Program-made: the position numbers and the translations under genes
The notes under the pieces: generated by a model
The model's database searches: none
What the model was told of the DNA's origin: nothing
What the model saw: the letters and a program-made list of their open reading frames with translations, nothing else
Shown here: piece after piece, positions 16,356 to 21,623 of the stretch
How the letters are laid out: every line of letters begins with the position of its first letter
Position numbering within the stretch: position 1 is the first letter of the stretch
Sequence record: MN648445
Origin: Escherichia phage FP43
Direction: 5' to 3' (one strand)
DNA length: 64,000 bases

Positions 16356-16935
16356 ATTAGTATTCGCATGTGCTCCGACTAAAACAGTCGATGATAAACT
16401 AGAATATGCTTTTGGATTAGGCGATGGACTGCCATGGAAGCATATCAAACAAGATATGAGTAACTTTGTTGCTCGTACTAAAAACACTGTAATGATTATG
16501 GGTGCTAAGACTTTTGCATCATTGCCTCGTCTACTCCCAGACCGTACTCATATAGTTGTCACTGATATGTCCAGAAAACTGCCCAGGACTAAAACCGACG
16601 AACTTGCGCAGTTCTATATCACACAATCTGAATTTATTACCTTAGTGACTGGTAGTGAAATTAACTTGTTTAGTCCTGCAACAGATGTGCCGTTTAAACT
16701 TTCCGCCGAACATGTTGATGTGTCTGTTATTGGCGGTCCCACTCTATTAAAACAAGCGCTGCCTTATGCAGATGAAATTGTGATGACTAAAATTATTAAG
16801 AAGCATCGTGTAAATTCCGATGTTCAGCTTGATAAAGATTTCGTCCAGGATATTATGCTTCAACGTTCTATGGTAGAATCTCATTACTACCAAATTGATG
16901 AACTAACCGAAATTACTGAGAGTGTATATAAATGA
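16348..16935 (+). CDS. frd: dihydrofolate reductase
   Basis: Internal ATG 16348 gives [15 protein letters not shown]...GLGDGLPW, matching the T4 Frd N-terminus; the track start 16237 is upstream of this. Confidence 0.9.
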
Positions 16936-17792
16936 AACAATACCAACACCTTATTAATGATATCCTAGAAAATGGCTATGAAACAGACGACCGTACAGGT
17001 ACAGGCACTATTGCTCTTTTCGGGACTAAATTGCGTTGGGACCTGACTAAAGGATTTCCTGCAGTAACAACTAAGAAACTGGCATGGAAAGCTTGTATCG
17101 CTGAATTACTTTGGTTTATATCTGGTTCTACCAACGTTAATGATTTACGTCTTCGTACTCATGGTAGCCTTATTGAAGGTAAAACTATTTGGGACGACAA
17201 CTATGAAAATCAGGCTAAAGACCTTGGATATCACAGTGGTGAACTAGGTCCTGTGTATGGTAAACAATGGCGAGATTTCGGCGGTGTGGACCAATTGGTT
17301 AAAACTATCGATCGTATTAAAGCTCTTCCTAATGACAGACGTCAAATTGTTTCTGCATGGAACCCGGCTGAAATCGACCAAATGGCTCTTCCTCCATGTC
17401 ATATGTTTTATCAGTTCAACGTACGTAATGGTCATCTTGACCTGCAATGGTATCAACGTTCAGTAGATGTATTCTTAGGACTACCGTTTAATATTGCCTC
17501 ATACGCTGCCTTGACTCATATCGTAGCGAAGATGTGTAATCTTATCCCAGGTGATTTAGTGTTCTCAGGCGGCAACACGCATATCTACAGCAATCATGTA
17601 GAACAATGCAAAGAAGTTCTTCGTCGTGAGCCTAAAGAACTGTGTGAACTTAAAATTGATTGGCCTGAAGGATTCTCTGATTGGAGCACGACATTACAGC
17701 TTCATTGGGTAACAGAGCATATGAATCCGAGTGATTTCATTCTTAAAAATTACGAATCACATCCAGCTATCAAAGCTAAAATGGCGGTATAA
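16932..17792 (+). CDS. td: thymidylate synthase (continuous, no intron)
   Basis: 286 aa uninterrupted; matches T4 Td exon-joined protein (PPCH, QRSVD motifs). Confidence 0.95.
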
Positions 17793-17793
17793 A

Positions 17794-18135: not shown

Positions 18136-20391
18136 ATGCAAGTAACTAAGAGTAGTGGTGTAAGCCAGAATTTTGATGCACAAAAAATTATCCAAGTCTT
18201 AACTTGGCAATGTGAAGGAACACAAATCGACCCATATGAATTGTACGAAGAAATTAAGACCCATCTTGTCGATGGGATGAGCACCAAAGATATCCAGAAG
18301 ATTTGTATTAAAGTTGCAGCTAACTTGATTTCTGTCGAAGAACCTGACTATCAATATGTTGCCGCTAAAGGATTAATGTTTGCACTTCGTAAAGATGTAT
18401 ATGGGCAGTTTGAACCGCCTGCTTTTATCGACCATATTTCTTACTGTGTTAATGAAGGCAAATATGACCCTGAGCTGTTGTCTCAATATTCAGCAGAAGA
18501 AATCATTTATCTCGATTCACAGATTAAACATGAACGAGACTTTGATCTGACTTATGCTGGTGCTATGCAGCTTAAAGAAAAATATCTAGTTAAAGATAAA
18601 ACAACTGGGAAGATTTATGAAACTCCACAGTTTGCTATCATGGCTATTGGCATGGCCTTACATCAAGACGAAACTCATGACCGTTTGAAACATATTATTC
18701 GTTTTTATGATGCCGTTTCTACTCATCAAGTTTCATTGCCAACCCCAATTATGGCAGGTGCTCGTACTCCAACTCGCCAGTTCTCTAGTTGTGTAGTTAT
18801 TGAAGCCGGTGATTCGTTAAAATCTATTAACAAAACTTCAGCATCAATTATTGAATATATTTCTAAACGAGCTGGTATCGGTATCAACGTTGGTATGCTT
18901 CGTGCAGAAGGTTCTAAGATCGGTACGGGTGAAGTTCGACATACAGGTGTTATTCCATTCTGGAAACATTTCCAAACTGCAGTAAAATCTTGTTCTCAAG
19001 GTGGTATTCGTGGTGGTGCTGCTACAGCGTATTATCCGATGTGGCACTTAGAAGTAGAGAACCTGTTAGTTCTGAAAAATAACAAAGGCGTGGATGAAAA
19101 CCGTATTCGACATATGGACTACGGAATTCAGATTAATGACCTTATGATGGAACGCCTTGGTAAAAATGATTATATTACTTTATTTAGCCCTCACGAAATG
19201 TCAGGCGAACTATACTACTCGTTCTTTGAAGATCAAGATAAATTCCGTGAGCTTTATGAGAAAGCTGAAAAAGACCCAACAATCAGAAAGAAAAGAATCA
19301 AAGCACTAGAACTCTTTGAATTGTTCATGACTGAACGTTCTGGCACTGCTCGAATTTATCCACAGTTTGTTGATAACACGAATAACTACACTCCATTTAT
19401 TCGTGAAAAAGCTCCAATTCGACAGAGTAACTTATGTTGTGAAATCGCTATTCCAACTAATGATGTGAATGGTCCTGATGCTGAAATTGGATTGTGCACA
19501 TTATCTGCTTTTGTATTAGATAAATTTGATTGGCAAGACCAAGATAAAATTAATGAACTTGCTGAAGTACAAGTACGTGCACTTGATAACCTGTTAGACT
19601 ATCAAGATTATCCGGTTCCAGAAGCTTTAAAAGCTAAAAAGCGTCGAAACCTAGGTGTCGGTGTTACGAACTATGCCGCATGGTTAGCTTCTAACTTCGC
19701 TTCATATGAAGACGCTAACGATTTGACTCATGAATTGTTTGAGAGATTGCAATATGGCCTTATCAAAGCATCAATCAAACTCGCCAAAGAAAAAGGATGT
19801 TGCGAGTATTATTCAGACACTAAATGGTCTAGAGGCGAATTACCTATCGACTGGTACAATAAAAAGATTGACCAAATCGCAGCCCCGAACTACGTCTGTG
19901 ACTGGGAAGAACTTCGAGCTGAACTCAAAGAACATGGAATTCGTAACTCAACGTTGTCTGCACTCATGCCTTGTGAGTCAAGCAGTCAAGTATCGAACTC
20001 TACAAACGGGATTGAGCCACCACGCGGCCCAGTAAGTATTAAAGAATCTAAAGAAGGCAACTTCCGACAGGTTGTTCCTAATATCGAACATAACATGAGT
20101 CTTTACGACTATGCGTGGAAACTTGCTAAGAAAGGTAATAAACCTTATTTGACTCAAGTTGCTATCATGTTGAAATGGGTGTGCCAATCTGCTTCTGCTA
20201 ATACTTACTATGACCCTGCAGTATTTGAGAAAGGTAAAGTGCCAATGTCAGTAATGCTTGACGATCTGCTTTACTTCTGGTACTTTGGTGGAAAAAACCT
20301 CTACTATCATAACACTCGTGATGGGTCAGGTACAGATGACTATGAATTAGAAACACCTAAAGCTGAAGATTGTTCTGCTTGTAAGCTTTAA
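18136..20391 (+). CDS. nrdA: ribonucleotide reductase large subunit
   Basis: 751 aa; class Ia RNR alpha; C-terminal CSACKL-type tail. Confidence 0.95.
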   Translation: MQVTKSSGVSQNFDAQKIIQVLTWQCEGTQIDPYELYEEIKTHLVDGMSTKDIQKICIKVAANLISVEEPDYQYVAAKGLMFALRKDVYGQFEPPAFIDHISYCVNEGKYDPELLSQYSAEEIIYLDSQIKHERDFDLTYAGAMQLKEKYLVKDKTTGKIYETPQFAIMAIGMALHQDETHDRLKHIIRFYDAVSTHQVSLPTPIMAGARTPTRQFSSCVVIEAGDSLKSINKTSASIIEYISKRAGIGINVGMLRAEGSKIGTGEVRHTGVIPFWKHFQTAVKSCSQGGIRGGAATAYYPMWHLEVENLLVLKNNKGVDENRIRHMDYGIQINDLMMERLGKNDYITLFSPHEMSGELYYSFFEDQDKFRELYEKAEKDPTIRKKRIKALELFELFMTERSGTARIYPQFVDNTNNYTPFIREKAPIRQSNLCCEIAIPTNDVNGPDAEIGLCTLSAFVLDKFDWQDQDKINELAEVQVRALDNLLDYQDYPVPEALKAKKRRNLGVGVTNYAAWLASNFASYEDANDLTHELFERLQYGLIKASIKLAKEKGCCEYYSDTKWSRGELPIDWYNKKIDQIAAPNYVCDWEELRAELKEHGIRNSTLSALMPCESSSQVSNSTNGIEPPRGPVSIKESKEGNFRQVVPNIEHNMSLYDYAWKLAKKGNKPYLTQVAIMLKWVCQSASANTYYDPAVFEKGKVPMSVMLDDLLYFWYFGGKNLYYHNTRDGSGTDDYELETPKAEDCSACKL

Positions 20392-20444
20392 GACTTTTGA
20401 TTATAATTTACTCATGGATGAGTTAAAACTAAGTGAGAAATATA

Positions 20445-21623
20445 ATGAGTACAGTTTTTAACACACAACAAGTCGATGTTTTGAATGAACCGATGTTCTT
20501 TGGTTCTGGTCTTGGTATTGCGCGTTATGATATTCAACGCCATAAAGTTTTTGAAGATTTGACCGAAAAGCAATTGTCATTTTTCTGGCGCCCCGAAGAG
20601 GTAAACTTGATGTTGGACTCTGCGCAGTTCAATAAGCTTCCTCAGTTCCAACAGGACATCTTTACAAACAATCTTAAGTATCAATCATTATTAGATTCTA
20701 TCCAAGGCAGGGCCCCATCTGCGGTACTTATGGCACTGATTTCTGACCCTTCATTAGATACATGGGTTGCAACATGGACATTCAGTGAAACTATTCACTC
20801 TCGTTCGTATACTCATATTATGCGAAATCTTTATACAGACCCATCTAAGGTATTTGATGAGATTGTATTAGACGAAGCAATCATGAAACGAGCTGAATCA
20901 ATAGGTAAATATTACGATGATGTTCTGGTTAAAACTCGTTATTGGGAAAACGCTAAAGCTGATATCGAATACCAAAAAGAAATTAATGCAGACGAAGACG
21001 TTATTGAAGATGCTATTGAGCATGAGACATATTGGAAGCGTGAGCTAATGAAATCTCTTTACCTCTGCCTCCATGTAATCAACGCGTTGGAAGCTATTCG
21101 TTTTTACGTATCATTTGCATGTACTTTCAACTTCCATAAAAATATGGAAATTATGGAAGGTAATGCAAAGATTATGAAGTTCATTGCTCGTGACGAACAA
21201 CTCCACCTCAAGGGTACTCAGTACATTATCCGTCAACTTCAATCTGGTACTGATGGTGATGAGTGGGTTCAAATTGCTAAAGAATGCGAACAAGAAGCAG
21301 TTGATATTTTTATGGAAGTAAATAGACAAGAGAAGGAATGGGCTGCACACCTCTTTAAAGACGGTACATGTCCAGGTATCAATACGCAGAGTATGTGTGC
21401 TTTTGTCGATTACTTGACTGTGTCTCGTATGAAACAGTGTGGTTTGCCATGCCCAATCACTGATGCTCCGACCAAGCATCCGTATCCTTGGATTCGTGAA
21501 TATCTGAACTCCGATTTAGTTCAAGCAGCTCCTCAGGAAGTTGAAATCAGTTCTTATCTTGTCGCACAAATTGATAATGATGTAGACCAAAATGTAATCA
21601 ATTCATACAAAAAATATTTCTAA
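20445..21623 (+). CDS. nrdB: ribonucleotide reductase small subunit (continuous, no intron)
   Basis: ATG 20445 gives MSTVFNTQQVDVLNEPMFFGSG... as in T4 NrdB; the track start 20433 is a GTG. Confidence 0.95.
   Translation: MSTVFNTQQVDVLNEPMFFGSGLGIARYDIQRHKVFEDLTEKQLSFFWRPEEVNLMLDSAQFNKLPQFQQDIFTNNLKYQSLLDSIQGRAPSAVLMALISDPSLDTWVATWTFSETIHSRSYTHIMRNLYTDPSKVFDEIVLDEAIMKRAESIGKYYDDVLVKTRYWENAKADIEYQKEINADEDVIEDAIEHETYWKRELMKSLYLCLHVINALEAIRFYVSFACTFNFHKNMEIMEGNAKIMKFIARDEQLHLKGTQYIIRQLQSGTDGDEWVQIAKECEQEAVDIFMEVNRQEKEWAAHLFKDGTCPGINTQSMCAFVDYLTVSRMKQCGLPCPITDAPTKHPYPWIREYLNSDLVQAAPQEVEISSYLVAQIDNDVDQNVINSYKKYF

Follow-up and report, generated by a model that had tools for sequence, protein, structure and literature searches.

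We analysed a 64,000-nucleotide (nt) stretch of the genome of Escherichia phage FP43 (MN648445), hereafter the window, for group I introns and homing endonuclease genes, with emphasis on td and nrdB, the two genes of this region that are interrupted by introns in phage T4. Both are uninterrupted in the window. At the six positions filled in the syntenic region of T4 (td intron, mobE, nrdB intron, segG, segE and segD) the window contains neither an intron nor an endonuclease gene, and the sequence around the td insertion point is conserved. Very probably, this is the td-nrdA-nrdB-denA block of an RB69-type phage in its plain state, with a conserved site at which td would be a probable recipient of an I-TevI-type intron.

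Structure of the td and nrdB genes

The genes of the region follow the order frd, td, small open reading frame (ORF), nrdA, nrdB, denA, rnlA, alc, and their identities in 16-24 kb are backed by Pfam. The td gene can be aligned without gaps to the spliced td of T4 (231 of 286 amino acids (aa) identical), and its product has the length of the T4 thymidylate synthase. The product of nrdB is identical to that of the spliced T4 gene in 339 of 388 aa, with indels confined to a variable loop. A gene carrying a group I intron is an interrupted ORF whose exons become colinear only after removal of the insert; neither td nor nrdB has this structure, and both are full-length ORFs colinear with the spliced T4 exons, as the preliminary description of this DNA had stated. 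It had placed the nrdB start at 20433, which is an upstream in-frame GTG; 20445 is the better placed start.

The exon boundaries of T4 were set by the rule that the last exon base is T and the last intron base is G. In T4 td, the upstream exon ends with CTTGGGT, and the intron of 1017 nt starts with TAATTGAGG and ends with ATAATG, followed by CTACCG. In T4 nrdB, the upstream exon ends with TTTTGCGT, and the intron of 598 nt starts with AAAATGCG and ends with CATACG, followed by GTACC. Alignment with these exons, proposed in the preliminary description, places the insertion points in the window between 17480 and 17481 in td and after 21120 in nrdB, and the I-TevI cleavage motif is intact.

Candidate homing sites

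The recognition site of I-TevI is 38 bp long, and the enzyme cleaves at 5'-CAACG-3', at distances of 23 and 25 nt upstream of the insertion point (PMC2988022, PMC5009752). The first and the last base of the motif CNNNG are critical (PMC5009752), and substitutions are otherwise tolerated across the site (PMC2988022, PMC5009752). The site in the window td consists of CAACGTTCAGTAGATGTATTCTTAGGA upstream and CTACCGTTTAA downstream of the insertion point. It has CAACG at positions -27..-23, at the native distance of 23/25 nt and with zero indels up to the insertion point, and thus contains both critical bases where I-TevI requires them. Four synonymous changes distinguish the 38 bp from T4, at positions -22, -10, -4 and -1, and the six alleles compared all encode the same peptide here. 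Of the 20 bp of the primary binding region, which is centred on the insertion point, 18 are shared with T4, the differences being those at -4 and -1.

These two changes produce TAGGAC, as in the intron operator. The core TAGGACTACCGTTTAATA (17476-17493) matches the operator in the td intron of Mosigvirus AV110 (intron positions 87-104, about 1725-1742 of locus L007) in 17 of 18 positions, whereas the T4 homing site matches the T4 operator in 15 of 20 (PMC2988022); the window site is thus the closer of the two to an operator. I-TevI binds the intron operator as tightly as the homing site (PMC2988022). Since TAGGAC belongs to a sequence bound in this way, cleavage of the window td by an I-TevI-type enzyme would be likely.

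In group I introns the last base of the upstream exon is U, which forms a U-G wobble pair in helix P1. In the window td the base at -1 (17480) is A, in the codon GGA. This speaks against a recent precise intron loss as the origin of the allele. On the other hand, this A should be no barrier to homing, because repair from a cut at -23/-25 would overwrite it.

In nrdB, I-TevIII cuts at -14/-16 (PMC1865063), and its footprint on T4 nrdB without the intron extends over these positions and the insertion site. Within -20..+12 of the nrdB insertion point the window differs from T4 at five positions, -14, -8, -2, +5 and +8, the first of which belongs to the pair of positions where I-TevIII cuts; the base at -1 is T. 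The target of MobE within nrdB is characterized by AAG at codon 42, which T2 shares with every mobE-less phage examined (PMC2790892); the window has AAG at this codon, upstream of the FFWRPEE segment. The closeness of the target sequences to the T4 homing sites is due to the invariant active-site peptides that they encode, that of thymidylate synthase and FFWRPEE in NrdB.

Table 1. Genes, candidate endonuclease sites and counterparts of T4 insertion slots in the window
Feature	Position	Strand	Description
gene 59-gene 32 spacer, 116 nt	13760..13875		empty counterpart of T4 segG slot (T4 map)
td (thymidylate synthase), uninterrupted, 286 aa, ATG to TAA	16932..17792	+	Pfam PF00303 Thymidylat_synt, profile 1-266/266, E 9e-98
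empty I-TevI-type homing site (-27..+11), 38 bp	17454..17491	+	CAACG at 17454-17458; insertion after 17480
nrdA.2-like small ORF (DUF5496)	17794..18048	+	Pfam PF17600; tblastn match to T4 nrdA.2; annotated as hypothetical protein in LF82-41
spacer upstream of nrdA, 87 nt	18049..18135		empty counterpart of SSE1 HNH slot (SSE1 annotation, alignment break points)
nrdA, 751 aa, no intein or insertion	18136..20391	+	Pfam ATP-cone, RNR_lgN, RNR_lgC; 86.7% aa identity to T4 NrdA over 751 aa
nrdA-nrdB spacer, 53 nt	20392..20444		empty counterpart of T4 mobE/nrdB.1 slot (T4 map)
nrdB, uninterrupted, 392 aa	20445..21623	+	Pfam PF00268; colinear with spliced T4 nrdB
MobE nick-site region of nrdB	20568..20600	+	codon 42 AAG (Lys) at 20568-20570; FFWRPEE at 20580-20600
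empty nrdB intron insertion region	21101..21135	+	insertion after 21120; I-TevIII cleavage -14/-16 at 21105-21107
denA (endonuclease II), not a homing endonuclease	21650..22060	+	Pfam PF01541, E 2.5e-6; 77-79% aa identity to T4 DenA
uvsW-inh spacer, 50 nt	48165..48214		empty counterpart of T4 segE slot (T4 map)
89-aa ORF, antisense between genes 24 and 23	53390..53659	+	full-length phrog_6003, function unknown; T4 position and orientation of segD

Searches for introns and homing endonucleases

No intron was matched in the window by Rfam at the gathering threshold. However, this threshold (RF00028, 50 bits) also misses the td and nrdB introns of T4 and the td intron of AV110, and thus the negative result by itself has no value. 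RF00028 in E-value mode detects the T4 td intron at 40.3 bits and the T4 nrdB intron at 35.7 bits, and no match was observed in 16000-23300 (E <= 10, size-matched to the T4 control) or in the whole window (E <= 5). The group I scan suggested in the preliminary description is therefore uninformative in its default form and negative in its controlled form. Searches of the window with blastn and nhmmer using the introns of T4 td, nrdB and nrdD and the td intron of AV110 produced chance-level matches only. The best intron-specific match, at 17476-17493, was considered as an intron remnant and rejected, as it is the known resemblance between operator and homing site. The largest gap between ORFs is at most 145 nt. 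All these searches agree with the earlier claim that the window contains no group I intron. They also carry a methodological warning: a default Rfam scan gives false negatives for the ORF-carrying introns of T-even phages and is unfit to declare T-even genes intron-free.

Candidate homing endonucleases were sought in several ways. All 15 T4 homing endonucleases (I-TevI to I-TevIII, SegA-G, MobA-E) produced only noise in tblastn against the window (E >= 0.2), while the DenA control in the same search was found at 5e-73. The Mob-like HNH protein of phage SSE1 had no match in the window. With MobA-E, I-TevIII and the SSE1 HNH protein as queries, and no direct Hef query, no member of the HNH class was found there. 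Pfam (E <= 0.1) and PHROGs assigned none of the 46 small or unassigned ORFs to an HNH, GIY-YIG or LAGLIDADG family, and most of these ORFs match either known small proteins of the T4 type or phage families that are conserved but have no assigned function. Finally, all stop-to-stop fragments of at least 25 aa in six frames were scanned with profiles built from the Seg/I-Tev and the Mob proteins; the best E-values in the window were 2.6 and 2.1, respectively. The same profiles recover segD, segE, segG, I-TevI and mobE in T4 at <= 1e-46, which proves only that the pipeline runs, because these T4 genes helped to build the profiles.

The only GIY-YIG protein of the window is DenA. Homing endonucleases of this family are two-domain proteins of about 200-260 aa, with the GIY-YIG nuclease domain at the N-terminus and the DNA-binding domain at the C-terminus, whereas DenA has 136 aa and no DNA-binding extension. 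The statement of the preliminary description that no GIY-YIG or HNH homing endonuclease ORF is present apart from denA is thus supported by tblastn, Pfam, PHROGs and the six-frame profiles. Its estimate of about 50 nt for the inh-uvsW junction is right as well; the junction is exactly 50 nt long.

Several candidates were rejected. A Pfam match to WhiA_N, described as LAGLIDADG-like (E 0.074), straddles the artificial junction of two concatenated ORFs. A 176-aa ORF at 59030-59560 (+) is antisense to gene 19 at 59102-59593 (-). Three ORFs, of 89 aa (in the segD slot), 112 aa and 204 aa, were considered as cryptic endonucleases and found no support in Pfam, PHROGs or a sequence search of PDB; in particular, the 89-aa ORF has no nuclease match in Pfam or PDB.

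Insertion slots in related phages

The slots are real insertion points, because they are filled in close relatives of the phage. In AV110 a group I intron of 1016 nt is inserted in td exactly after the position corresponding to window 17480, and encodes a 245-aa orthologue of I-TevI that is 89% identical to the T4 protein. In SSE1 a 211-aa Mob-like HNH gene lies just upstream of nrdA and overlaps the nrdA start (2095-2730 of locus L008). Full-length genes of the I-TevIII type were observed inside the nrdB intron in HY03 and AV121. The nrdA-nrdB slot takes cargo other than homing endonucleases as well: in EP02SG this spacer contains a 273-aa Dam-like methyltransferase gene with the motifs FCGGLGFS and DPPY (4376-5197 of locus L009). 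An extra segment of 363 nt in phage SF was considered as a td intron without an ORF, and rejected, since it turned out to be an ORF of 115 aa and unknown function, inserted between frd and td (973-1320 of locus L010). At the segD position, a 601-nt query with the 89-aa ORF and its flanks is covered to at least 80% by about 120 records, and many Tequatrovirus records match the flanking genes only.

The intron-free state is common. A probe of td exon and intron matched td in 1311 records, and the match extends through the intron in 199/1311; for nrdB, intron sequence is present in 118/1438 records. An 8-kb query (16000-24000) matched 904 phage records, the top matches being Mosigvirus (RB69-type T-even phages) at 95-96% identity. 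Relative to these 904 T-even-type records, the td intron occurs in at most about 22% and the nrdB intron in about 13%. RB69 was predicted to have no homing endonuclease genes (PMC2993671), and T4 is the outlier (PMC2988022). Thus the contrast with T4, which the preliminary description had treated as a distinguishing mark, does not set this phage apart: most T-even records are without both introns. Uninterrupted td and nrdB genes without endonucleases are the default for Mosigvirus, already published and ordinary. The significance of the observation is accordingly small, namely that the standard RB69-type layout is confirmed for the td-nrd region and for five further T4 endonuclease slots.

The genome of a T-even phage of this type has roughly 170 kb. 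The description of the genome as intron-free therefore holds for the window, about 64 kb of the total, and overreaches for the genome, because the nrdD intron site and most of the other T4 endonuclease slots fall outside the window.

The td gene as a candidate recipient

The td allele keeps the known requirements of I-TevI: a C in position -27 and a G in position -23 at their native distance, and 18/20 bp of the primary binding region. In a mixed infection with a relative that carries the intron, the I-TevI-type enzyme of that relative would probably cut it, and repair from the intron-bearing genome would copy the intron into td. We know of no exchange of DNA between T4 and RB69. Plausible realistic donors are intron-carrying Mosigviruses such as AV110 and F27. 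The earlier suggestion that the phage is a potential recipient in mixed infections is thus plausible for td, with its intact CAACG, and for the MobE target at nrdB codon 42; it is uncertain for I-TevIII, whose site is changed at -14. In practice, the td allele, with its apparently intact I-TevI-type target, might be used as a natural recipient when homing is studied in crosses with Mosigviruses that carry the intron, such as AV110.

Several points weigh against this view. Cleavability is predicted from the sequence, and the tolerance of I-TevI covers many changes, not every combination of them. Compared with the exon context of AV110, which matches the common Mosigvirus allele, the td site has nine differences, among them a TCA/AGT switch in a serine codon, so an enzyme borne by a Mosigvirus might prefer the commoner allele. 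In nrdB, one of the affected positions is a cleavage position of I-TevIII (PMC1865063). The term endonuclease-free applies to the 64-kb window. An endonuclease of a class without a Pfam or PHROGs model or likeness to T4 proteins could conceivably hide among the ORFs of unknown function, such as 16017-16355, 31273-31887 and 53390-53659.

The divergent frd-td patch and other explanations

The 5' part of td belongs to a divergent patch. The region 14800-17552 is 76-90% identical to Mosigvirus LF82-41, whereas its flanks are 96-100% identical. This patch of 2.7 kb comprises two frd.2 paralogues, frd.1, the ORF of 112 aa, the frd gene and two-thirds of td, on the 5' side. Its right edge falls between 17552 and 17694, at 70-210 nt from the td insertion point in the 3' direction. 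Within 44 kb no other patch is strongly divergent, the tail-fibre genes excepted.

One possibility is that the td allele is secondary: an ancestor would have lost the intron, or been cut at the I-TevI site, with subsequent gene conversion, and the patch could be a fossil of this endonuclease-initiated event at the I-TevI target. If so, intron endonucleases would shape Mosigvirus mosaicism even in genomes that end without an intron. The position of the right edge and the singularity of the patch fit such a history. However, the base preceding the insertion point is A and not U, and the best matches of the patch are the intron-less alleles of Mizar (95.5%) and phiEC1 (94.6%) rather than the intron-bearing ones of AV110 (84-89%) and T4 (76-80%). 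Moreover, the codons of a conserved active site are natural places for a crossover anyway, and T4-type genomes are known to be variable around frd.1-frd.3. Ordinary mosaic exchange, with crossing over in the conserved active-site codons beside the variable region, explains the patch equally well, and we regard a gene conversion initiated by an endonuclease as unlikely.

Another possibility is that the synonymous changes at the td and nrdB sites are selected escape variants, so that the phage would be resistant rather than a recipient. Target-site drift is an established idea of an escape route (PMC5009752), and both the nine differences of the td site from the common Mosigvirus allele, with the serine codon switch, and the change at the I-TevIII cleavage position in nrdB are in line with it. 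On the other hand, the whole CAACG, with both critical bases, is intact at native spacing, I-TevI tolerates site substitutions (PMC2988022, PMC5009752), and the changes at -4 and -1 match an operator bound with full affinity (PMC2988022). In addition, all changes are synonymous third-position substitutions of the kind found throughout the divergent patch. Selection for escape thus seems quite improbable.

Finally, it is very hard to believe that an intron or a homing endonuclease of an undescribed class is present and was missed, for although ORFs of no assigned function exist (16017-16355, 24707-25197, 26265-26489, 31273-31887 and 53390-53659, the last in the segD slot and orientation), they all have full-length matches to conserved phage families without assigned function and show no nuclease motifs or PDB similarity, the host genes are all intact, and an intron within a gene would not fit into any of the non-coding gaps. 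The plain state of an RB69-type block, with a td site probably open to an I-TevI-type enzyme, is the explanation that we prefer.

Other features of the window

ORFs of the window located in 11.6-55.3 kb were compared by tblastn with T4 105-150.5 kb. Most of those compared could be named and have T4-like lengths; eight small or Mosigvirus-specific ones have no counterpart in this T4 segment. One ORF without a T4 counterpart is the 112-aa ORF at 16017-16355 (+), upstream of frd, which belongs to phrog_8592, takes the place of two small ORFs of LF82-41 and has no match in Pfam or PDB. Another is the 204-aa ORF at 31273-31887 (+), between the homologues of 30.7 and 30.5, which belongs to phrog_17531; its N-terminal half is weakly similar to FRD2 (phrog_622, E 6e-5).

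The longest non-coding stretch of the window is 29825-30119, after rIII, and is intergenic, as in T4. It includes an insertion of 134 nt relative to LF82-41 (29825-29958), directly after rIII, that contains a hairpin AATGATT-tgcg-AATCATT and a promoter-like sequence TTGAAT...TATACT. We take it to resemble the small promoter/stem-loop cassettes that move between T4-type genomes.

A 68-aa ORF at 46164-46370 (-), on the strand of uvsW, matches the T4 segment annotated as uvsY.-2, as judged by coordinates irrespective of strand. In T4, uvsY.-2 is annotated on the strand opposite to uvsW. Thus either the orientation differs in the window, or one of the annotations needs to be revisited.

Comparison with known phages

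The closest known systems are RB69 and other Mosigvirus phages (LF82-41, Mizar, ST0, ATK47). They share with the window the order frd-td-nrdA.2-nrdA-nrdB-denA-rnlA-alc, the unbroken td and nrdB genes, and the absence of mobE, segE, segG and segD, at a nucleotide identity of 95-98.6%. Identity to LF82-41 over td-alc is 96%, and the closest record over 39-64 kb is phage Mizar (98.6%). The window differs from most of these relatives by its rarer frd/td-5' allele, which is at most 89.5% identical to most of them and 95.5% identical to that of Mizar, and by the different small ORF upstream of frd.

The intron-bearing Mosigviruses AV110 and F27 have a backbone about 95% identical to the window over 16-24 kb, and both are about 1017 nt longer across the 8-kb td-alc match; the intron is confirmed in AV110, and in F27 it is suggested by the length excess.

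The T4 region contains orthologues of td, nrdA and nrdB in the same order, with aa identity of 81% for thymidylate synthase, 87% for NrdB and 87% for NrdA, and the peptides across both intron insertion sites are identical in T4 and the window. However, the window lacks the td intron of 1017 nt that encodes I-TevI in T4, the T4 genes mobE and nrdB.1 of the nrdA-nrdB interval, and the nrdB intron of 598 nt, in which T4 has a truncated I-TevIII gene.

Two intron-less alleles used experimentally are similar to those of the window. The T4 td delta-intron site has CAACG at the same position -27..-23 with identical spacing (PMC5009752), and the window differs from it by the four synonymous changes. 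The nrdB gene of T2 likewise has AAG at codon 42 followed by FFWRPEE (PMC2790892), while five substitutions surround the nrdB insertion point in the window.

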